From Mizuhopecten yessoensis (Eukaryota): 64,000 bases of DNA. Under the pieces are notes generated by a model. That model saw nothing but the letters and a program-made list of their open reading frames with translations, did no database searches and was not told the DNA's origin. The translations under genes and the position numbers were made by a program. Location of the stretch: the NCBI RefSeq assembly GCF_002113885.1, contig NW_018408629.1, positions 1,321,971 through 1,385,970 on the forward strand. Reading direction: 5' to 3'. This document shows positions 11,331 through 64,000 of the stretch, one piece after another; the stretch's first letter is position 1; every line of letters begins with the position of its first letter.

Positions 11331-13321
11331 CTAACATTATGTGGTGTAACGAAATCTAGGAAAAAACAAAAAGGTAACAAAATAATGATAAAATATCCGT
11401 GAAAATTACTTTATTTAAATATTTTTTTACCAAACTCAGGTAGGAAAAGGAGTACAAAGAGAAATTTGAAAACGAACACTGAGAAACACATATGACTAAA
11501 TGAAAAGCAGTTGTTTAATAATACAATGGGCCGATGGATTTTCAATTGCAGCGGGTTTTTTTCAAAGTTCAACTTTTAGATACTACTCAGAGTTGTTATG
11601 CCAAACAGAATATCTCCATAAACAAGCAAGTAGTATGAACTACTAATCGAGCACGCGCTTCTGGTTTGATGTATTCCAAGCTAATAATTAATAAATGAAC
11701 ATTACCCCTTTTTTTACCAAAAACAGTGTTTCGATTGAATGTGATAAAGCGTAACTAGAGCCACAAAGCAGAATATGAGATTAACACACTACAAACCCTA
11801 ATACAGTGCGTGTCATTTGACCATGACCATTTATAAACAAGTACTAAAATTAGGTGTTAGCATAATGTTTCCGGTAAAATCACTCGTGTCTGAATCGATA
11901 GGTGCTTATGTGTGCCATTCGTCATCATTAAGGTTTGGGTGCTACGTTTTCTTGAAGAATCCTTATAGCGTTTTAGGAGTCGACTGAACACTTTTGAAAC
12001 ACGCAATCGGTAAATTTCGATTTACCTTTTTGTGTTTTGATAGAACCTATTTCAATAGCCCTATTTGAACATTGATTAATAAATGTGTGTCGTCATACTA
12101 TGACTTCATCTGATGATTTAAGATTGATTTGAATTAACCGATGATGTGCAGCTCGTCAAATTAGTAATTTCATTTAAGACTGATTCTGTGAATGCGGTAA
12201 ATGGTATGTGTGCTGAAAGTCATTCAACATAATTGACTGCTCTGTATGTTGGAACGTAGACTCAACAGATTTATCTGACAAATTTGAAATCTGCGTCTGA
12301 CTGGAAGAGTTTACATTTAAGGCTTTTGACAACAGGTTCTGAATATTTCATATGGACATCATCCTTTTGATAGAAGGATTGAGGGAGATATAACCTTATA
12401 ATATTACAATATATTCACTGTGTGGTCGGAAAATAAGAAAAAAACCATTGACAACGTTTGTGAAAAATGAATACCCCTACTGACATCGCGTCGTCTATCC
12501 ATCAAGTCCTAAGCTTGTCGCCTAGAAACGCTTACTCACTCTAGGTTTTCATAAACATAATATTTGCACAAAGTTTCAGTTACATCAAAAAACAAGAGAC
12601 ATAAAAATTCAGTTAATAACAATGGTTTTTGATTTATAGAAACAGTGATCTTAACCTTGATATGCATTTCATATAACACAAACTCTTTTGAGGAAATTGA
12701 ACACACAGTTTCATCTAATACATAGAAAATAATAAAAGTAATAGAGCAACACTTAAGATTTTTCATTTATAGTAAACCTGACCTTGACTATTGATACACA
12801 GAGCATCTTACTCGTGATCATTCGACGAATTTATACTGGACAAGTATGGCTTTTAACAGTGAAGGGCGACAAATGGAATGATCATATAAATACAACAGCG
12901 GAGTAATGATGGAGATATATTACGGACGAAGAGATGTATGCCCTTCAATGTTATGGTAAGGGAATTAAATAGTAAGGTGACGCCAATGTTGGACCCATTA
13001 AGTCAGTGACAACACACATTCTTTTATTTCATTAGGGTCGTCTGACATAATGATATACTTTTGTAACAATCAGATTTAGGACGGAAAATTCTTAATCTTT
13101 CGCAGAGGCACAACGCATTTAGGGCCTAAACAGACAACATAATCTACGCCAATGCTGGAAACAGAAAAAACAACCATCTGAAAAAAGTCTTCAAGGTTTG
13201 CAGTCATATGATGTAATTGTTTAGTATGGACCTTGCCATTAAGAACACTCTAATGAAATTGGCCATTGTACCTTCCAAGACAACACTATCAGAAAACAGT
13301 TTTTTGGTGAAAAGGTCATAA

Positions 13322-13510
13322 TATTCCGTCTTTGCGTATTACAGAGTTATCTTCTTTTGAGAGCAGGTATTGATTGTTACGTCAATTGTTAGTGAGAGTA
13401 ACGTCATAATTTTTTGAGAAAACGACGTAATTTTCTCACACAAACCAATGACGTAACAATCAATACCTGCTCTCAAGAGAAGATAACTCTGCAATACGCA
13501 AGACGGAATA
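13322..13510. mobile_element. Palindromic MITE, family A copy 1
   Basis: Termini TATTCCGTCTTTGCGTATT..AGAGTTATC / GATAACTCTGCAATACGCAAGACGGAATA; near-complete hairpin; three copies in window. Confidence 0.9.
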
Positions 13511-14113
13511 TATATAACTTATCTTTTGTTCTTTTGCGTACTTAAACATATTTCCCGCTGTCGCATTATTTGCGTTTTTACGTGATCTGTGCGTTATGCT
13601 GATGTATAAAGTGTTTGAATAATTATGTAACCGATACATGCTAAAGTAAGGCATGTGAATCTACAAGCCATGCTTCAGTTACTGTACCAATTGTTAACAT
13701 TATATTTACACCACTATAATATGTTTCAAACTCGTTAATTTCATTGTGTTAATGTTAGGTGCTTTCGTTTCAAAGTTTGTAAATTGTCGTAATACAAACA
13801 CTATTTTATTGTATTTAAGGAGTTTACATAGCGTTCACCATATTTTAATTTATACTCTCTGAGGACTCAATGAAACTACCAAACGTTGTATGACTATTTT
13901 GCTAATAGAATTGACCGGGATCAAAAGTACAAAGTTTTCGGTATATCTATTGAAATAGACAATATTGACAAACTAAAATGTACATACATTCTCTATGCTT
14001 TTGTGCAAATAATGTTTCATTAGAAATCATTTATTTTAGACATGGTCAATGACAACGAACAATCAATGACAAACTCTATATTTAAACACCAATTGTACAC
14101 ATCATCTTTCTTA

Positions 14114-44695: not shown

Positions 44696-45334
44696 GGACT
44701 ATGTGATATATATAACGTCAAAGAGGGTAAGGTGAGTTAAAATACATCAGTCTATATAATAGAACGATGTCTTTCAATAATAAAATAATGCATTCGAGTC
44801 CACGGAACTGAAAAGAGTTTTCATATCCAGGACTCGAACGTAGTTATCACGAATGTGTTTCAAATCGGAACATTCTATTAAAAATGTTCTACTGTAAATG
44901 GAGTGTCACATGCGTGGCATGAAGGTGGATCTTACCGTTTTAAAAGGTACGAATGAGTAGGAAATGTGTGCCCAGTACAGAGCCGAGAGAGGACAACTTC
45001 TTCTCTACGATCTTTCCGACTGGGAACAGATGTTTTAAGTTTCAGTTGTATTTTAAAGAGTTTGTTGCTGGTCTTGAGAGACCATCGTTGCTGCCATTCA
45101 TTTTGAATAGCTGTACGAATAAATGGTTTAAAATCTGTATATGGTAGTTTGATATTTGTTTTTTAGAAATTTAACGCTTAATTTGCCTTCCTGTCAACAA
45201 ATTCGTTGCCTTTAATTCCGACATGGCTCGGAATCCATAGTAAAGTTATTTGAGATTTTTTTAAGACACGAGATTTGCGAAAAGCAAGGTTTTGTACGAG
45301 TGTGTTTTTAGGATCTCGTGACTGTAAACTTTGT

Positions 45335-45853
45335 TTGTTTGTTTGTTTGTTTGATTTTGTTTAACGTCCTATTAACAGCTAAGGTCATTTAAGGACGGCC
45401 TCCTCTGTGTGCAAGATGCATGTGTGTAGTGTATGTGTGTGTATTTTGGGAGGCTGCGATATGTTCGTGTTTGTCTCCTTGTGATAGCGCGGAACTGATG
45501 CCGACTTTATAGTGCTACCTCACTGAAACATACTGCCGAAGACACCCAGCAGGACGCCCCACCCGGTCACATTATACTGACAATTGGCAAACCAGTCGTC
45601 TCACTCCTATAAGTATATACTACCATTTTCAAAGACTTTGGTATGTCTCGGCCAGGAGACAGAACCCAAAGCCTTCCTCACAGAGGCGAACGCTCAACAA
45701 ATGGCCAAAAGTGAGGCATTGCAAGGGAGACATTAGGAAGAAGAAAGTTATTTAGAACGTAGAGAAGAGATAAGGTCCCAAATTTAGTCGCCTCTTACGA
45801 TCATGCAATTGGGGGCAGCAGGTACAATTCTTACGCCCTACCTGCAGGGTCAT
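45335..45853 (-). mobile_element. Composite Meta-type SINE with (AAAC)n tail, bounded by an 11-12 bp TSD
   Basis: Meta-like body (minus: gactggtttgcc..tgtcagtataatgtgaccgggtgg..ttcagtgaggtagcactataaa), tail gctgttaataggacgttaaacaaaatc(aaac)n. TSD tgtaaactttgt (45323-45334) / tgtaaacttgt (45854-45864). Empty site visible in the paralogous repeat near 63680. Confidence 0.88.
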
Positions 45854-47115
45854 TGTAAACTTGTAGGACAGATAGAGACTCTAAACAAAGTATTGCCTTT
45901 TAAATGCGGTGTTCATCGATATGGTCGAAGGCCAAACCAATGACGCATGCTTCGGCAGATGGAGGTGCCGTCTCGTAGTCGATCTGAAATGCAAGAATTA
46001 GCAGTACAGCAGGCTGCTGCCACTTTCTCACCATCTTTGGAACCATCGGTGTAAAGTTGTGTATGAGAAAGGTAATTAGCAACATGTTAAGAAAGTATCA
46101 TTTTTCTAACGAAGTGATACTAATGGTAGGTAGTCAAGTGAATCATGCTTCAAAACGGTTCAACTGGTTTGAGTTACTTTAAGCTAATATCTTTGGGACA
46201 ATGGGAAGTTTATTCGCCTCTGAAATATTATAACCACTAACTTAAAAGGTGAAACGTAAATACTATTTATTCGAATTTTAATTTATATTTAGTAGTGAAT
46301 TATAAAGCAGCCAGCAACACAGTACGGTTATATAAGGCCAGATGTTAGCGAAAACGTTAAGGATTGGTGGGACCAGCGAGATGTAGACGCGAAAGGTTAC
46401 AGTAAAAAAAGTTGACAGGTGTTCAGTAGCCTAACTGCTTTTGGTGATAGTTCCGTTTCGTAGAATGGTTTTGTTTGGTTGGTTCTGTTTTAAAGACCTC
46501 GCAACATCCATTGTCATATGAAGACGAGTTCTTATGTCAACACCACTGACAAGAAAGATTAGGCAAGTGAGAAAAAGAAAAAGAAAGAAAACCCGAGTGT
46601 TGGGATAGGGGCAGGAGTTTAATTTTGGTCTCTTCAATGTCCCGAAGACGGAAGGAACAGACAAAAAAAATCAATTTTGTAGGAGGCCCTGCATAAGTAA
46701 ACTATTATAACAGGTAAAGGGATACAGCAAAGCCTTTTTTCTCGGAACCTGCAGAGGTCTAGTCAAGTAAACAGAAGGAAACCGAATATGTGCAGGTAGA
46801 CACACATACGTCGTCCAATATCGTCAGGTAGTGGAATTCAGCTTTCTATTCCTTTCCCAAACATGAATAGCAAATAGTGTAAATAGGCGTTAGTGGTGAA
46901 AACTAGGTCTACTGACTGTCAATGACTGCTTGTTAGATTATCACTGACTTTGTCTACGTAAGTGAACGGCCTTCACAACGAAGTATCAAGTTACAACAAA
47001 TCGAAGGACAAAGCAACCGATTTCTTGTATCAACTAACTGGACTAATATATAAGATATTGTAAACTTGATATGCGTAATAACACCTCTACCTAAGTAGCA
47101 GTTATACACGTAGAT

Positions 47116-52427: not shown

Positions 52428-53935
52428 TGTCATTTCGTAGCATTAAGTTGGGTTTCAAAAGAGATTGACATGTTATAAGTCCGATGAACTATTTTGATGA
52501 AAACATCGGCTGTACTTTACCGGATGTTGACAGTGCCTTTCCCATGGATTGATGGTTTGACAAGCTTCAGTCATATTTACTGGATAATTTGATATATTGA
52601 GGGATTTGTGGACCTCTCTTCATTCATTCAGCTATTTCTTTTGGAAACTTTGTAATACTGACGAGAAACAGTGTGTATTCAGAAGAGGAGACCCATATTA
52701 ATGAACTTCACACATGGAGGTATGCAGACAGCAGACCCGTGCAGTTTTGAGCCGGTAACACACGTGTGACATTTCATTAATGAATGACATTAATAGTTCA
52801 TATACGGTGCTTAACACTGTTTGTGTGTATCTAAATATTAATTCATTTGGATTTATTGTTGCCATGTCTATTTTTGTGATCAGTGTGAACGTGTTTTTGT
52901 GAGCATGGAAAGTGGATTCCCCTGCCCTGCTAGTGATTTCCTACAGAAAGGTTAGTAACTTGGTATTTTTGGTTAGTTGAATTTATTTATATTTCAGAGT
53001 TTTCTTGACTATTCGATTGATTCTGGCTAACAGATATTGCTGACATTATTATACAGGTTGAGACATCATGACGACCTTACTCTGATGACATCTTTGTGTA
53101 TGAATATATGTTGATGTTCTTGTGTGTCTGTTACTTGTGTGTTGCACTTATGCGCTTGCGACTTGTAGCATTTTGCTTTTGAAAAACTTGGAGTAACGTG
53201 AGTCGCGACATAATAATTTCTTATAATTTTGTTTCGCGTTGACTGAAATTTGATTTTCTCTATATTGGTGTCATATTTCATTTTCATGAATTCTTGTGTA
53301 TAATTTTGACATAGTGATCATAGTTATCTCCCTTTGATATCCACTTTTGATTATCCCCCTTGATTTTGTGCTAATTGTATATATATAGGTACAGGGTAGC
53401 TTATACTTCATACTTTGTTATCATTTATTGACAATTATCCATACTTTTGGACTTTGAAAATTTCATTTCATATTATTAGGTGATTATTCTATATAGGCTT
53501 ATTAGGTTATTATTTTCAGTTTGTTTACACATTGAATTTATTTATTATTTTGTCACTGATTGCACTGATACTGCTCAATCATTCTTTAGTATTTTGGATA
53601 TTTCAGTATATATTATTTGTCTTTTTGTGATTTCTGTTTACATTGTACTCATTTGATCTGATTTAATTTTGGTTTTTTCATTTCTCTTCTAGTTTTGTTG
53701 TAAATTTCATATTTCAGGAAAATCTTTTGGACTTTGAATTCTTGTATTTATTTTGTATTTATCATTTTTTTCTGGCTTTTTGATTCGGAAAACAGTTTGG
53801 ACGTTGCGGATTCAATGTGTGTATTTGTACATTCATGAACTTTGATATTTGTCTACAGGATTTATTCTCACTTTGGATTTCATGATTGTGTTATTTGTGT
53901 TACTCTGTTTGTGTTCATTGTGTGATATTTCAACT

Positions 53936-55075
53936 ATGGCTGAAGGCAGTGAGGAGCAGGTGGCACATTTATTGGAGGCATTTTCGAGCATGGACCTCAA
54001 ACCTAACTTGGAGTCTAAGGATGCTGCAGCTAAATGGTTAGCTGATCTATTATCAGGAGGAGCCAAATCCAAAAATCCCAATGTAAAATTAGAAGTGTTG
54101 GATCCTTCACCACAGGCAGACGTTCAAGGTCATCAAGAGGATGCTGCACCTCCCAGTAACCAATCAAGTGTTTCATACAATGTTCCAAAGATCTCCATAT
54201 TCTCAGGATGTTCTCAAGTTCCTAATGGAGAGGTCTCCTATGACCAATGGATATATGAGGTCAAGATGTTACAGCGAGATGGTGTATACAAAGATCATGC
54301 TATTTTTCAGGCTGTGAGAAGATCCTTGGGAGGAGAAGCAGGAAAAACAGCGATGAGACTTGGTTCTTCAGCAACACTTCAACAGGTACTGGACAAGCTG
54401 GTCAGCAACTATGGTAATATTGCTGCTACTGAGGATTTACTTGCCAAGTTTTACTCTGCCAAGCAAACAGATACAGAGGATGTGACATCATGGGCTGGCA
54501 GACTAGAAGATATACTAGACAAGGCTAGGACCAGATGCGAACTTACTCCAACACAAGTGTCAGAGATGTTGCGTACCAAATTCTGGCGAGGACTTAAGAA
54601 GTCATTACGTGACATCACCGGTTATAAGTTCGATACCATCTTAGACTATGACAAGCTGCGTATTGCTGTTCGACAGATTGAGCAAGCAGATTCTTCACCT
54701 GAGAAGCCCAAGACTGCTAAAGTAGCCATTCACCACAGTGATGACATTAAAGAAATGAAAGCTTTGGTAAAAGATTTAACTTCTGAGATGTCTAAGTTGA
54801 AGAAGGACATATCCACTTTACAACAGAGTAGGAATCTTTCCAGTTATGGTCAACAGTCCACTTATGGGGCACGTCAGGGTTATCAAGCATCACCTCAGGA
54901 ACACACTCAGAATAGGAGGCAAGTTGTGCCATTTAGAAGAAATACTGATGGAAATGGACCGCTCTGCTGGAGATGTGGACAATCTGGACATATGAGACGT
55001 GATTGCCATGTGAATTTGGAGCACAGCAGGAAGTCTTTAAACGTTCAGATGCCTACAGGCCAGGGGCACCAGTAG
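53936..55075 (+). CDS. gag: Gag, PNMA/Ma-like capsid plus CCHC zinc knuckle (379 aa from actATGG)
   Basis: PKISIFSG..GEVSYDQW..AVRRSLGGEA..FYSAKQ..WAGRLE capsid signature; coiled coil; CWRCGQSGHMRRDC. Confidence 0.93.
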   Translation: MAEGSEEQVAHLLEAFSSMDLKPNLESKDAAAKWLADLLSGGAKSKNPNVKLEVLDPSPQADVQGHQEDAAPPSNQSSVSYNVPKISIFSGCSQVPNGEVSYDQWIYEVKMLQRDGVYKDHAIFQAVRRSLGGEAGKTAMRLGSSATLQQVLDKLVSNYGNIAATEDLLAKFYSAKQTDTEDVTSWAGRLEDILDKARTRCELTPTQVSEMLRTKFWRGLKKSLRDITGYKFDTILDYDKLRIAVRQIEQADSSPEKPKTAKVAIHHSDDIKEMKALVKDLTSEMSKLKKDISTLQQSRNLSSYGQQSTYGARQGYQASPQEHTQNRRQVVPFRRNTDGNGPLCWRCGQSGHMRRDCHVNLEHSRKSLNVQMPTGQGHQ

Positions 55076-55098
55076 GCATGATCAGTCAGCAATGCCCT
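55036..55098 (+). promoter_or_regulatory. -1 programmed ribosomal frameshift element
   Basis: T TTA AAC (55036-55042) phased XXX-YYY-Z in the gag frame, pol in -1 frame, 6-nt spacer. Stem ATGCCTAC/GTAGGCAT; loop GGGGCA complementary to TGCCCT downstream. Confidence 0.85.
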
Positions 55099-57668
55099 AA
55101 CGTTCGGAAGGATAATACTGAGTTAGTTGGAGACTGCAGTGAGGAAGAGCTTAAGATTGCAGGAGTGTGTACCACTGCATTACTAGACACAGGGTCAGCT
55201 GTAAGCACTGTTAGTCGACATTTGTATGATACTTACCTCAGTCATTTGCCACTTCAGTGCCTTGACAACATATTGGATATCGAATGTGCTGGAGGAGAGA
55301 CATTACCCTATGATGGATTTATCAAGGCTGACATTGAGACTGGGATCGACGGTCATACTTCATCGTTGCCAGGGTTGTTACTTGTTGTGCCGGATACCAG
55401 GTATAATTCCAAAGTGCCAGTTTTGGTTGGTACCAACATCTTGACAGGTATCATGGATGCATGTAAGTATGTTTACGGAGACAGATTGTTGAAGGGAGCT
55501 TCTCTCTCAACATCCTGGTATATCACTTTCAGATGTATGGCACTACGACAGCGAAACTTGGTACGGAATAATTTTCGTCTTGGACTTGTCAAGAGTGCAG
55601 AGGGTACTGCAGTTCAGATATCGCCAAATAGCCAGGTAACCATTAATGGCTTTGTGGATCGTCAAGTGGAGCATACACCAACTAGTGCTTATCTCACAGT
55701 ATCTGAGGAGTCATCATTGATGGATGATTTAGATATTTCGCCAAGCCTTATTCAATACCGCTATAGAAGGACTGGTGTTGTTTTTGTGATCATATCGAAC
55801 ATCACAACCAGGAATGTTACCATACAGCCTCGAGCTGTGTTATGTGAACTTCAGCCGGTTAAGGTAGAAGGATGTTTACAGGATGTTAACACAGAATCAA
55901 TTGATGCTCCTACATCTAAAGATACAGATATGGATTCCCTACTACAGCTGATGAAGTTTGATGACAGACTTACTGAAGAGGAGTTATCCAGTGGAAAGCA
56001 AATGATTTCTAGTTTCCCAGATATATTTTCCAAGGATGATTTGGATCTTGGTCATTCCTCAGCTGTTCATCACCGCATAGAAATTACAGATGAGGTGCCA
56101 TTCAAACAACGTCATCGGCGTATTCCACCTGCCATGCTTAGTGAAGTTCGTGATCACCTACACCAACTCTTGACAATCGGAGTCATACGTCGATCACATT
56201 CACCCTGGGCATCAGCAGTTGTATTAGTTCGGAAAAAGGATGGTCGCTTGAGAATGTGCATAGATTACCGACAGCTGAATCTTAGGTCTATAAAAGATGC
56301 TTATGCTCTTCCTAGGGTGGAAGAAATTTTGGACTCTATATCAGGTTGTGACTACTTTTCTACGCTTGATATGAAGAGTGGTTACCATCAAGTGGAACTT
56401 CACGAGGACCACAAACAACGGACTGCTTTCACTATTGGGCCTTTATGTTTTTATGAGTTTAATCGGATGCCGTTCGGATTAGTGAATGCTCCAGCCACAT
56501 ACCAGAGATTAATGGAGGAATGTCTGGGAGAGCTACATACCACCATTTGTTTTGTATATATTGATGACATTATTGTGTTTTCCAAGACATTCAGTGAACA
56601 TCTTGACCGACTGCAGATGGTATTCGACAAGATCAGATGTCATGGTCTGAAGTTGGCTCCACAGAAGTGTTCATACTTCAAGAAGAAAGTGAAGTTTCTT
56701 GGCTTCATAGTGTCAGCCGATGGCATTGAAGCGGATCCAGACAAAGTGCAAAAGATCGTGGACTGGCCTAAACCTTCTTGCCCTGAGGATGTAAGAAGGT
56801 TTCTAGGATTCTGTGGTTATTACCGCAAATTTGTGAAAGGATTTTCAGCAATTGTGAAACCATTGAATGGACTGTTACCTCCTACACGGAACAAAGGCCA
56901 CTCAAAGAAGTCGGACTTACCTGGGTGGAAGTGGGAAAAAGAACAGGAAACAGCATTTCAGACCTTGAAGGATATTTTATCTTCACCTCCCATTCTTGGC
57001 TATCCGGTATATGACTTGCCATTTGAAGTGCATACCGATGCAAGTGGAAAAGGTCTTGGAGCCATTCTCTACCAGCAGCAAGATGGTAGATCACGTGTCA
57101 TCGCTTATGCCAGCAGGGGTGTAACAAAATCTAAGAGGAATTACCCTGCACATAAATTGGAATTCCTTGCCTTGAAATGGGCCGTAACCGACAAATTTGC
57201 AGATTATCTGTATGGAAGGACGTTTACGGTAACCACAGATAATAACCCTATGACGTACGTTTTGACCACTTCCAAGTTAGATGCAACCGGACATCGGTGG
57301 TTAGCTGCGTTATCTGCATATGATTTCAACATCATTTATAAGCCAGGAAGGACCAATACAGGTGCGGATATCTTGTCAAGATTACCTTGCCATTTTGATG
57401 GAGAGGAGCAGTCTACAGCCGTGAGTGATATCTCTCTGGATTCGGTCAAGGCCATATGTAGTTCTGTTCAGCAGCCAGTGTCTTTGATTGAGACTGTTTC
57501 CATGTCTACTGCCGTTTTTGATGGTCATTGCATGGACACCGACCAGGATCTTCAGGAAATGTCTTCTAGAGACTGGAGACGGGCACAGGATAGAGACCCA
57601 GCACTTCGATATTGGATATTCTGTGTCAAAAACAGCAGGAAACCTGACAAAAGACAATTGGATCCTGC
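55036..57668 (+). CDS. pol: Pol: aspartic protease, reverse transcriptase, RNase H (uninterrupted up to the N at 57669)
   Basis: LLDTGS; RMCIDYRQLN, LDMKSGYHQV, MPFGLVNAPATYQR, YIDDII; HTDAS, KLEFLALKWA, TDNNP, ADILSR. Confidence 0.97.
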
Positions 57669-58497
57669 NATTTTCAGCAATTGTGAAACCATTGAATGGA
57701 CTGTTACCTCCTACACGGAACAAAGGCCACTCAAAGAAGTCGGACTTACCTGGGTGGAAGTGGGAAAAAGAACAGGAAACAGCATTTCAGACCTTGAAGG
57801 ATATTTTATCTTCACCTCCCATTCTTGGCTATCCGGTATATGACTTGCCATTTGAGGTGCATACCGATGCAAGCGGGAAAGGTCTTGGAGCCATTCTCTA
57901 CCAGCAGCAAGATGGTAGATTACGTGTCATCGCTTATGCCAGCAGGGGTGTGACAAAATCTGAGAGGAATTACCCTGCACATAAACTGGAATCCCTTGCC
58001 TTGAAATGGGCCGTAACCGACAAATTTTCAGATTATCTGTATGGAAGGAAGTTTACGGTAACCACAGATAATAACCCTCTGACGTACGTTTTGACCACTG
58101 CCAAGTTAGATGCAACCGGACATCGGTGGTTAGCTGCGTTATCTGCATATGATTTCAACATCATTTATAAGCCAGGAAGGACCAATACAGTTGCGGATAT
58201 CTTGTCAAGATTACCTTGCCATTTTGATGGAGAGGAGCAGTCTACATCCGTGAGTGATATCTCTCTGGATTCGGTCAAGGCCATATGTAGTTCTGTTCAG
58301 CAGCCAGTGTCTTTGATTGAGACTGTTTCCATGTCTACTGCAGTTTTTGATGGTCATTGCATGGACACCGACCAGGATCTTCAGGAATTGTCTTCTAGAG
58401 ACTGGAGACGGGCACAGGATAGAGACCCAGCACTTCGACACTGGATATTCTGTGTCAAAAACAGCAGGAAACCTGACAAAAGACAATTGGATCCTGA
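56841..58497 (+). repeat. 828-bp direct duplication across a single N (56841-57668 vs 57670-58497)
   Basis: Collinear, about 18-19 substitutions by hand count (~2%), no indels seen. Confidence 0.95.
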
Positions 58498-60244
58498 TCA
58501 GCAAGCTATGTTGCGATCATTTGACAGGTTGAAGATTGAGAGGGGTGTACTGTACCGTGGAGTTACAGAAGATGGAGCAACACGGAAGCAGCTTGTGTTA
58601 CCTTCTGCTTACCGGAAACAGGCATTATATGGTCTCCATAATTCTGTTGGACACCCTGGTCGTGATCGGACATTGTCGTTGTTGCAGGAGAGATTCTATT
58701 GGCCGGGAATGAACCAGGACGCGGAGAGATGGGTGAAAAGCCGACGCTGTGTGTCAAGGAAGGCTGTTACTCAGAAGGCACCATTAGTGAATATTCAAAC
58801 GACGCAGCCACTAGAGCTAGTGTGCATGGATTTTCTCACTTTAGGAGGATTCCAACACATTCTCGTCGTGACCGACCACTTCACGAAATAAGCCCAAGCC
58901 ATTCCGACGAAAACCAGACGGACAAGACCACAGCGGAAGCCTTCTTTTATAACTTCGTGGTGCATTATGGAATGCCTCGACGGATACACTCTGACCAAGG
59001 TGCCAATTTCGTTGGAGAGTTAATCCATCAGCTATGTGCCATGGCCAACATCAAGAAGAGTAGGACTACGCCTTACCACCCGATGGGTAATGGAAGTTGT
59101 GAAAGATTCAACAGAACGTTGCTTGGGATGTTGGGTACTTTGGATCCGAAGGAGAAAGGGGACTGGAAAAGGCACGTTGGTCCGCTTGTTCATGCATACA
59201 ACAGCATCCGGCATGATAGCACAAGCTACTCGCCCTTCTTCTTGTTTGGCAGGCATCCCAGGTTACCTATCGACTTGGCATTCGGAGTAGATATAGGAGG
59301 AAAACATCAAACTCTTTCAGGATATGTCTCATCGCTTCGTGATAATCTGAAGAAGGCATATAACTTAGCCAGGAGTCATACAGCTTCCGCATCAAAGCAC
59401 CAGAAGAAGATTACGACAGAAGAGCCAGAGCGGCTGATTTACAAGACGGGGAGTACTAGTGCGGATTGTGGCTTTCGAGGGCAAACATAAGATTTCCGAT
59501 AAGTGGGAAGCGGAAGATTATGTGGTTCTCCGTCAGCCAAATCCGGATGTTCCTGTGTATGTTGTAAAGAGATGTAATGGTGATGGGAAGGAAAGGACTT
59601 TACACCGTAATTTACTTTTACCTATCGACTTTCTTCATGATGGAAACGAGACGAACCAGGAAAAGAAAACTACATCAGAAACATAAGTTACTAAGAAGAG
59701 GACACAGACTAAGCCAGAGGATACAGGTAATTTATCGGAGTACGACTCTGATGAAGATGTCGACAAATCTGTCGTCATTTTGGATACTTTACAGGGCCCG
59801 CTATCGGACATGGAGAATGGGATTCTAGCAAGTCCCAAGGAGGATACTCCGGAACCTGATAGTCCTGAAGATGGGGCTGCTCAGTCTGCAAATGGCGACG
59901 ACCATATTCAGTCTGAGGCAGTGGATGTAGCACCACCAGGTGACGACCAAGTCTCCAGGAACGACGAGGCTGGAGGTGCTACGATCCAGGAAGAAGATGG
60001 AGATGTGGATGAACCACAGGTACCTACGCCAGCTCCCAGAAGATCTGTGAGGGCAAGGCAACCTCCTCTCTGGCAACGATCAGGAGAGTTCGTGATGAGC
60101 CAAGTGTGTCCCGGTACGTCAACGGATTGGATCACGAGAGCTGAGTATTTACAAAGCCTTGTTGAGCGTGGAATGCTTGCTCCAGACCGAGTATCTGATG
60201 CTCTAGTAAGGATTGTTTGTGGAGATAATCTTCCTGTGATGTGA
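57670..60244 (+). pseudogene. pol: Second copy of RNase H followed by disrupted integrase and acidic C-terminal tail
   Basis: HHCC finger lacks one Cys (LHNSVGH..KSRRC); TAA at 58889-58891; frame changes near 58910, 59410-59460 and 59680. Catalytic D (VCMDF), D at 58993 and E at 59101 keep D(35)E spacing. Confidence 0.9.
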
Positions 60245-61385: not shown

Positions 61386-63185
61386 TAATTATATCAGTCA
61401 TTATTCCAATGTCTGTTACGATGTCAATGTCAATTACAGGCTTGTAGATTGTTATCAAAATCTGTATTGGTGACGTCTGTACATAGACCTATTAAATACT
61501 GGAAAAGTCATCAACATAAACGTGTACAGCTGCATCAGAATACGTGCACAAGATACCAAACACGGATTAAGGGAGCTAACTCCAAACACGCCAGTTAAGT
61601 TTCATTGACATGCAAGTTGTCTCCCTTCTCAAGATATATAAATTTGATTGGACTATTTTACCTTTTTTGACCTACATAACTTCGGTCAGTTTTGTAAATG
61701 TTGTCTTAATTTTCTTGATTGTCTATTTAATGATGAAAAGGGCGTAAATGCCAAACATTATTTCAAATAGACATGTATTGTACGGTTTCGCTAAAAGTCA
61801 TCTTGCTGCATGCTACTTCAATTATGAAGCTTGAAGTGTATGCGACCTTAGCGATTATATAACCAAGACATGTGTTGAATGGTATTTCAGATGTTGTATT
61901 AATATATATAAAGTGTTGTAAACATATCCAAGTGTACCCCAAAGACAGATTTTGTCGCACTGAACATGTTACTCGTTAAACCAACAAGCAGTCTGCAAAG
62001 TCCTGCAATCTAGAAAATCACCAAGGTTAGGGAACTAAGTCAAACTTCAGCAATACCGGAATTGTCGAATGAGGAATGAGAAAATGAGGAAAGCTCCTGG
62101 AATTTTCAAAAAGTGGCAAGTTCAAACGTCATGTACAAAAGGCATACACAAAGCAGCCAACATTTGTCATACCCAAGTTTCTGTTGGACTTTCTCAACCA
62201 ATGAGGTTGTGTAACCCTCTTCGCAGGTGCTAATAAAACCACATGCATACATTTTACTTGGTAAATTTACATTGTTCATATGCAAAATACGTCTGGTTTG
62301 ATTGTGGTCCTAATCTCAATGTTGTACATGTACTTGTATAAAACTAAGCGTGTGAGTTATTGTCATGCTTGATATCTAATTGCATTTAAACAACAAATTT
62401 TCAGTGATTGGGTTGTGACTATCATGAACTGTTAGTGGTAGAATAGTTGAATGTTTATATGTGTCTCAGTCATCAAAGTGGTTTGAACAAAAGTCAAACA
62501 ATAGTACAAGTTCAGTTATAAGTATATGACGTTAAACAGTTGCTTTATAATGGAAATATTGAAGTAATCATGTATCAGATAAAACATTGATACCCTTGTG
62601 CTAATTGTTTCTCAATTATATGTATATAACTTTGTGGCTACCATGATGATGGAGATTTACTTCATTTCGTTCTGACGCTGCTCAAACAAAGTTATATGAA
62701 GGTGCAATACCGTGATGATTTAACGAAAGAGATGCAATTGTTGCATAGGTAATTTTATCAAAGCATTCAAGTATCTAGTGTGCGTAGGAATATCCACAAT
62801 ATGAAACGCGTCTCAGGATTGATTAATACTATCATATTATCTCCCTCAACTCGAGCCAGATTTACCTGTTTGTGTGTCACTCTTCGAAACCTGTACCTGT
62901 GAATAGACGGAAACACCACATACAGTCACTACAGCATGAGCAGTTCCAAGGTAAGTTGTATCAACATTTAATTTATTGTTTCTGTAATGATAAAGATATT
63001 TTTCAATTAATATTTTTTATGTCTGTAAATGATTTAGAGTGTAGGTATTTGCTATAGCATATTTGGATTGAGGGCAGCTACCACGTTCTCTGCTTAACAT
63101 TCGTTTAATGTTTAATGTGTTAGTTGAAAAGCGCTTGGACAGTTTAGCGTTGAGCACACGTACGTATTATCTCCCTCACAAGATG

Positions 63186-63731
63186 TTTCATATCCGGGAC
63201 TCGAAAGTAGTCATCACAAATGTGTTTAAAATAAAAACATGCTATTAAAAGATGTTCCACTGTAAATGGAGTGTCACATGCGTAGCATGAAGGTGGGTAT
63301 TCTCGTTTTAAAAGGTACAAATGTGTAAGATGTGTGTGCCCAGTACAGAGTCGAGAGAGGACAACTTCCCGACTGGGAACAGATGTTTTAATTTTCGGTT
63401 GTACTATAAAAAGTTTGTTGCTGATTTCGAGAGACCAGCGTTGCTGCTATTCTTTTTGAATGGCTGTACGAATGATAGGTTTAAAATCTGTATATGGTAG
63501 TTTGATATTAGTTTGTTCGAGATTTAACGCTTAACTATTTTGCTTTTCTGTCAGCAAATTCGTTGCCTATAATTCCGACATGGCTCGGAATCCATAGTGA
63601 AGTAATTTTAGATTTCTTTAAGATACAAGATATGCGAAAAGTAAGGTTTTGTACGAGTGTGTTTTTAGGATCTCGTACCTGTAAACTTTGTAGGACAGAT
63701 AGAGAGTCTGAACAAATGATTGCCTTTTTAA
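63186..63731. mobile_element. Right-end fragment of the Kolobok-like element (uninterrupted paralog of 44819-45334 plus 45865-45903)
   Basis: Collinear similarity over ~545 bp; ends gattgcctttTTAA. Confidence 0.85.
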
Positions 63732-64000
63732 TTTACATCATTTACACATGTCATTTGAATAAATAAAACTTAAAAGAAAAGTAAATGGATTATATATCAG
63801 GTTTATTTCGTTCTAGTCTACCAGCAGACAGTTGTTGTCTAACATTGCTGAACGAGGCGTTTTCAGCTGCTAAAAAAGACAAGGTATAAAGATATTTTGT
63901 ATCATCATATCGACTTTTTGTATTCGAAGCAGTTGATATTTTCTTGAAACTAACCTAAGTCTTGAACGTTGTAATAAAACATGTCAATAAGATGGCATTA

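Follow-up and report, generated by a model that had tools for sequence, protein, structure and literature searches.

Scallop genomes carry 520-bp MESC SINEs (Matetovici et al., 2016; PMC4758252), in which a 68-bp LINE-derived head resembling the 5' end of Nimb-17_LMi is followed downstream by a CT-rich stretch and then by a tRNA head. The same head was reported in the LP-SINEs of several molluscs, as well as in Nimb-17_LMi, I-3_DR and RTE-9_CPB, and was proposed to act as a promoter, with a call for experiments (PMC4758252). Both the SINE and its Nimb-LINE-derived head have thus been known since 2016; the sections of that paper drawn on here give neither an RNA structure nor a viral occurrence for the head.

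There are several described RNA elements with which such a head may be compared. The HDV-like ribozymes: these are found at the 5' ends of LINEs, such as R2, RTE and the L1Tc/ingi 77-mer, the last of which is both a promoter and a ribozyme, and the LINE clades with 5' ribozymes have been listed (PMC5786205; PMC4758252); the consulted portions of PMC11481361 and PMC4824008 do not mention ribozymes. The exoribonuclease-resistant RNAs (xrRNAs): these are pseudoknot-dependent elements of viral 3' UTRs, for which tandem copies are known, and a 2021 review, in the sections used here, records no characterised xrRNA in cellular RNA and raises the question of eukaryotic genomes (PMC8374639). The s2m element: this is a short conserved RNA element common to unrelated RNA viruses and invertebrate genomes (PMC8515862), a distribution that recalls the module we report here. 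Our module differs from s2m in being pseudoknotted and in defining retroelement 5' ends, and it has no Rfam match. We take the two to be unrelated in sequence. Within the literature covered, the scope of which left out most subscription papers, figures and Repbase/Dfam notes, we found no account of the fold, its covariation, its viral occurrence or its exchange with HDV-like heads.

The insertion and its SINE family

The window analysed here is a stretch of 64,000 nucleotides from Mizuhopecten yessoensis (GCF_002113885.1, contig NW_018408629.1). On its minus strand lies a 522-bp insert that ends in CAAA repeats and is flanked by two copies of TGTAAACTT (Table 1); the initial annotation had likewise described one insertion bounded by a target-site duplication, giving its length as 519 bp. 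Window positions 44813-45905 and 63180-63732 constitute a local duplication (~86% identical), the second copy of which is without the SINE and has a single target-site copy at ~63680-63690: this empty paralogous site confirms the boundaries of the insertion. The insert matches MESC elements in its length of ~520 bp, CT-rich spacer, tRNA-derived head, target-site duplication and tandem-repeat tail, and the supplementary alignment of the 2016 study holds the same leader letters, those of the knot and the hairpin (PMC4758252). The polyA signal reported in Chlamys, a species-level remark that does not define the family (PMC4758252), is absent from the window copy, which contains neither AATAAA nor ATTAAA. 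This copy has a private deletion of ~20 nt in the SINE body, and no tRNA is detected in its decayed head by ARAGORN. A first reading of the body as a V-SINE was dropped because PMC4758252 assigns this architecture to MESC.

Table 1. Parts of the SINE insertion, in window coordinates
Feature	Position	Strand	Basis
5' target-site duplication TGTAAACTT, 9 bp	45854..45862	-	repeat match; empty paralogous site near 63680
Lead between duplication and knot, 4 nt	45850..45853	-	elsewhere mostly 1-3 nt, variable
Predicted H-type pseudoknot	45818..45849	-	covariation; descriptor
Pseudoknot stem S1, 3 bp	45849-45847 with 45838-45836	-	pairing located
Single-U loop of pseudoknot	45846	-	pairing located
Helix S2, 7 bp	45845-45839 with 45824-45818	-	pairing located
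AGAAU loop motif in pseudoknot	45831-45827	-	predicted fold
Bulged hairpin	45777..45813	-	predicted fold; comparison
Helix P3 of bulged hairpin	45813-45807 with 45783-45777	-	comparison
Near-invariant P4 hairpin	45801-45787	-	comparison
Internal-loop UAA in bulged hairpin	45786-45784	-	predicted fold
CT-rich spacer	45716..45776	-	sequence; also described in PMC4758252
Decayed tRNA-derived head	45650..45715	-	A-box-like 45707-45695; B-box-like 45666-45655
SINE body, MESC/Meta by family description in PMC4758252	45395..45649	-	assigned from shared architecture
3' tail common to active I/Nimb-type LINE, ending in CAAA repeats	45332..45394	-	80-84% identity
3' target-site duplication TGTAAACTT, 9 bp	45323..45331	-	repeat match

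The window also contains other mobile elements. ARAGORN detects a tRNA-Glu at 27276-27346, which is probably the head of another SINE and has related copies at 25140-25322 and 21540-21676. An LTR-retrotransposon-like gag/pol region with four overlapping frames spans 53849-59490 and includes an 827-bp internal tandem duplication (56841-58496). Three copies of a MITE-like palindromic element of ~200 bp are located at 13309-13516, 16659-16843 and 25872-26077.

In genome G000, there are at least 810 exact matches to a 29-mer from the knot and 1324 to a 29-mer from the B-box region. When copies were selected by the body (n=29), 16 had the whole leader, with the remaining 13 starting at scattered positions between 54 and 266; the leader thereby belongs to the retroposing unit, as had been supposed, and independent adjacent insertions are rejected. 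A second sample, of 40 B-box copies chosen for lacking an exact knot 29-mer, had 18 starts at positions 1-8, 19 at 9-125 and three at 148-155, the A box lying at 146, with no class of copies that starts at the tRNA head among these 40. This absence of a pile-up fits the loss of Pol III starts. The canonical B box, GTTCRA, is found in none of 67 B-box regions, such that the degradation noted in the window copy is family-wide. Judged from these sequences, Pol III starts of the SINE are unlikely. The proposal in the initial annotation that the element gave up its Pol III dependence hence fits the data; the architecture is not new, having been published in 2016.

The 5' ends of the SINE could be mapped by their target-site duplications in 24 of 38 copies, the leader-ranked set being left out. 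As many as 21 of the 24 end 1-3 nt before S1, 12 of them exactly 3 nt before it. The lead bases vary (GA, TG, GT, GG) even among copies that are 98-99% identical, suggesting that the 5' end is measured from the structure and needs no fixed sequence. A G is present in 30/38 lead dinucleotides, and the first base is a pyrimidine at 13/24 mapped ends. The family is present in RNA-seq data (unstranded reads), with many reads that continue upstream of the module into a variety of flanks in each of three runs. Molecule starts do not accumulate at the knot in these unstranded fragment libraries, which mix many old copies.

Older relatives in G000 (L345-L351 and L386-L415) comprise copies of the same SINE with a longer spacer and short elements that combine the module with a LINE-like tail; the short elements have no visible tRNA head. 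Further, two tandem arrays (G000:C1369:880948-883246 and C4552:249019-251296) are built of 42-44 bp units containing the invariant hairpin motif.

Fold and covariation of the leader RNA

The extra leader of ~135 nt that had been placed upstream of the tRNA head is present, though only ~75 nt of it are structured and the remainder is CT-rich spacer. Its quoted letters are found exactly on the minus strand from 45853 to 45774, and the proposed 7-bp helix, the pairing of CCC with GGG in its loop (a 3-bp stem, S1) and the second hairpin were all located at the positions given in Table 1. On its own, the leader sequence of the window copy shows no gain in folding over shuffled versions (z = -0.66, 51/200 as good), and the structure accordingly rests on comparison.

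For this we used 18 diverse sequences, hand-picked and all found via the hairpin (P4) as an anchor. Changes on both sides of the helix are seen at 7/7 pairs of S2, and its covariation score is 0.346 as against 0.136 +/- 0.024 upon shuffling (0/500), with slid S2 partners scoring at most 0.14. On 73 further matches the S2 score is 0.197 versus 0.096 (0/500), in a model-made alignment that leans towards the model and includes related families. A descriptor of the full knot (S1 of 3-5 bp, a single U, S2 and a loop ending in AGAAU) beats shuffles (<=6/200) in 12/18 sequences and fails to do so in 6/18. For P3, the pairing sum with its own partner is 107, compared to 66.6 +/- 6.7 under partner swaps (0/1000); it forms at least 4 bp in 16/21 sequences and only 2 bp in three of six viral copies. 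The invariance of P4 is no evidence of structure, as it served as the search anchor, and the conservation of ~25 positions in at least 70% of the aligned sequences is in part due to the search design. The loop between S1 and AGAAU can expand by 60 nt, and between 46 and 115 nt separate S1 from the invariant hairpin across four families; the flanks nevertheless still diverge 1-3 nt before S1. The helices of the proposed fold thus covary, and the leader head (~75 nt) is likely to be an RNA module, with a predicted H-type pseudoknot followed by a bulged hairpin.

The module is unmatched by Rfam models, including those of twister, twister-sister, pistol and hatchet, in a search that also missed the predicted HDV-like fold of a LINE, L417, considered below. 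The hammerhead core (CUGANGA + GAAA) is found in 0/13 sequences, and a descriptor of the HDV-like nested double pseudoknot (P1-P2-P3-P1.1-P4 with the catalytic C) in 0/17 module sequences, consistent with the earlier impression that the fold is neither of these.

The module in viruses and LINEs

An exact 17-mer search of IMG/VR gave five matches, all near the 3' end of a contig, with L032 and L034 being near duplicates. With variant patterns added, the module is found on six distinct viral contigs, where it begins 6-122 nt beyond the stop codon of an ORF: three with an RdRp (RdRP_3 in L033 and L035 and RdRP_4 in L300, by Pfam), one with only a capsid protein (L032, Peptidase_A21 capsid in Pfam), one unclassified (L031, the ORF of which has no Pfam match) and one large DNA virus (L299). 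In the five small contigs the module lies 88-183 nt from the contig end, and in L031 a second copy follows 106 nt on, interrupted by the contig end. The sixth copy, at L299:4984-5046, is intergenic, on a DNA-virus contig of 212 kb and close to a gene for a NAD-dependent DNA ligase; this locus, which had not been used for training, reaches 65.8 bits and has all 7 bp of S2 intact, in contrast to chance anchor matches of at most 28.5 bits. The size and genes of this contig recall, in our estimate, an invertebrate iridovirus. Further viral patterns gave 1, 11, 4 and 23 matches, among which L299 and L300 were the only additions. Eighteen new loci from the last two of these patterns scored 28.5 bits or less and were rejected, and a loose pattern with at least 121 matches had only two real ones, both on already-known contigs. 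None of the viral module loci has an Rfam match.

It may be asked if these viral copies are functionless passengers acquired from host retroelement RNA. Only six contigs with the module were found among the 2.9 million searched, and these belong to unrelated groups; with s2m, there is an earlier example of a 3' UTR motif that is mobile and has no known function (PMC8515862). However, the viral S2 sequences each differ and yet pair at 6-7/7 positions, and all viral copies sit behind a stop codon, such that this explanation is very improbable.

Since RNA viruses have the module in their 3' UTRs, it cannot act at the DNA level alone. The initial annotation had suggested a promoter or a ribozyme, each of which we hold to be possible but less likely than a block of an exonuclease. 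An internal Pol II promoter, as in the 'LP' proposal of 2016, either alone or along with an RNA role, would have the copies start where transcription does, and is suggested by the extreme 5' position of the module, the fact that it has taken the place of tRNA heads in several SINEs (PMC4758252), the G-rich leads, the family-wide decay of the B box and the dual nature of the L1Tc/ingi 77-mer (PMC4758252). Unless the role is dual, though, a promoter leaves unexplained the compensatory pairs and the retention of the module in RNA viruses that have no DNA phase. Moreover, the fixed spacing between start and element seen in LINE Pol II promoters is not reproduced by the 46-115 nt span, albeit other designs are possible, over half of the mapped ends begin with a pyrimidine and the window copy is without AATAAA. 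On balance, we consider a promoter unlikely.

In tombus-like viruses, 3' translation enhancers are located shortly after the stop codon, and in small RNA viruses the module has the same place. It could hence be a binder of the translation machinery, functioning as a cap-independent enhancer in viral 3' UTRs and LINE leaders, with the SINEs docking on ribosomes that make LINE proteins. In line with this, LINE HDV-like ribozymes have been reported to help translation to start (as cited in PMC13725137), and the invariant loop suggests a protein or RNA partner. Such a role does not explain the ends 1-3 nt from the knot in independent families or the repeated keeping of the module by non-coding SINEs, and we regard it as unlikely as well.

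Turning to cellular elements, a metagenome search with the exact hairpin 17-mer gave at least 120 matches, of which 80 were examined; these represent several repeat families, LINEs included (L215), that begin with the module. A search of prokaryote genomes, the source of L308 and L312, gave nine matches: four at 41-72 bits, two of them with LINE ORFs, which likely represent host DNA, and five at 25.6 bits or less. LINE ORFs are found downstream of the module in L312, L308 and L215, which, together with PMC4758252, upholds the earlier claim of a LINE-derived leader. In a different metagenome family (L201, L204, L213, L241, L250 and L252) a tRNA-like head comes immediately after the module, a layout that was reached separately. 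In L189 and L238 the module is upstream of a segment that we take to resemble RTE 5' UTRs.

The SINE tail is common to a young I/Nimb-type LINE family of G000 (L417:705-6653 on G000:C942, also L418, L420, L423 and L502-L521), with 80-84% identity over 49-63 nt at 11/16 LINE loci. This LINE is ~5.95 kb long, encodes an ORF2 of 1222 aa with endonuclease, RT and RNase H domains, and is represented by dozens of open frames and 64 exact 5'-motif matches. Its first base coincides with that of a predicted HDV-like fold; a descriptor of this fold, relaxed after its first version missed the LINE, recovers 2/6 LINE 5' ends as against 2/1000 shuffles. Among 13 mappable LINE copies out of 24, seven start on G1, the first ribozyme base, and SINE and LINE ends differ in the frequency of lying at least 2 nt upstream (Fisher p = 3e-4). 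The module itself is found at none of 16 LINE 5' ends in G000, and a query with the L215 ORF1 was unmatched there, among the best candidates scored. L312 and L308 compare with L417 at 43% and 37% in ORF1 and 42% and 39% in ORF2, and in both the module precedes the 5' UTR segment that in L417 follows the predicted HDV-like fold: on this comparison, the module and the HDV-like head appear exchangeable between homologous LINEs.

The module therefore shares with the HDV-like ribozymes of LINEs the position at the element start, the scattered distribution over LINE clades and the exchange between related LINEs. It differs from them in topology and in the 5' end, which is 1-3 nt upstream of the fold rather than on the first paired G. 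A new class of self-cleaving ribozyme, which would cut 1-3 nt upstream of the knot and free the element from read-through transcripts, is suggested by the module occupying the place of the HDV-like fold, by the ~25 conserved positions, allowing for the search design, and by the occurrence of ribozymes in the UTRs of linear RNA viruses (PMC13725137). However, the would-be cut bases vary freely and the ends are spread over 1-3 nt, in contrast to the preference of the LINE for G1; many RNA reads span the would-be cut site; and no known ribozyme fold matches the module. In addition, cleavage where a viral 3' UTR begins would presumably separate the coding region from the genome end. The viral ribozymes described in PMC13725137 mostly precede ORFs or form tandem pairs. 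The viral 3' UTR position is better suited to a block of an exonuclease than to cleavage, and a ribozyme seems unlikely to us.

A candidate exoribonuclease-resistant RNA

As our preferred reading, which we put forward tentatively, the leader would work as an xrRNA that releases unit-length RNA from host read-through transcripts. We favor it because a block of an exoribonuclease would account for four aspects of the module's role: the action at the RNA level, the 5' end separated from the fold by a few free bases, the replacement of both a tRNA promoter and a ribozyme, and the tolerability at the start of a viral 3' UTR. In the sequence of events that we infer, an exoribonuclease, Xrn1 or Xrn2, would trim host read-through transcripts from the 5' end and stall 1-3 nt before the knot folded in vivo; this would leave a unit-length SINE RNA, which the I/Nimb-type LINE sharing its tail, as the probable mobiliser, would copy back into the genome. 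Viruses may use the module for the same chemistry.

Several features link the module with the viral xrRNAs of flaviviruses, Tombusviridae/Luteoviridae and coremin: these have a pseudoknot at the 5' edge, and the position in viral 3' UTRs, the tandem copy (as in L031) and ends a few nt upstream of the fold are alike (PMC8374639; PMC10321173; PMC5760640). The position and the tandem copy, both known xrRNA traits (PMC8374639), count in favor of the assignment, as do the covarying helices, the SINE ends measured from the fold, the exchange with the HDV-like head and the RNA reads that extend into upstream flanks. Coremin further needs a knot-like unit and a second hairpin, and the module has two similar parts. 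In contrast to the viral xrRNAs, the module has no Rfam match and no three-way junction and is mainly found in cellular retroelements. Moreover, xrRNAs are defined by a ring of 15-16 nt around the 5' end, whereas the module is known from predicted base pairing.

Other observations count against an xrRNA. Ordinary H-type frameshift pseudoknots fail to stop Xrn1, even with an added hairpin (PMC10321173), and the halt sites of flaviviruses are 5-6 nt before P1 (PMC5760640), compared to the 1-3 nt here, unless S1 is partly unwound. The frequent G in the lead dinucleotides would also fit a cap-derived G or the purine starts of a promoter; the mixed, unstranded libraries have no start pile-up at the knot; a third of the sequences fail the shuffle comparison and P3 is short in half of the viral copies; and the exchange for an HDV-like fold is just as compatible with a ribozyme.

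The module is possibly, then, an undescribed class of xrRNA, traded between invertebrate LINEs and SINEs and unrelated viruses, which makes retrotransposon 5' ends by means of stalled decay enzymes. If so, retrotransposons would have a third route to their 5' ends in addition to promoters and ribozymes, and the module would constitute the first xrRNA family in cells. The 2016 study left open the role of the ~70-nt head shared by LP-SINEs and Nimb/RTE LINEs (PMC4758252); the defined helices, the measured 5' offset and the viral counterparts make this question, and that of cellular xrRNAs, testable. Even if the module were a ribozyme or a translation element, it would represent a family of structured RNAs that retroelements and viruses have in common and that is absent from Rfam 15.
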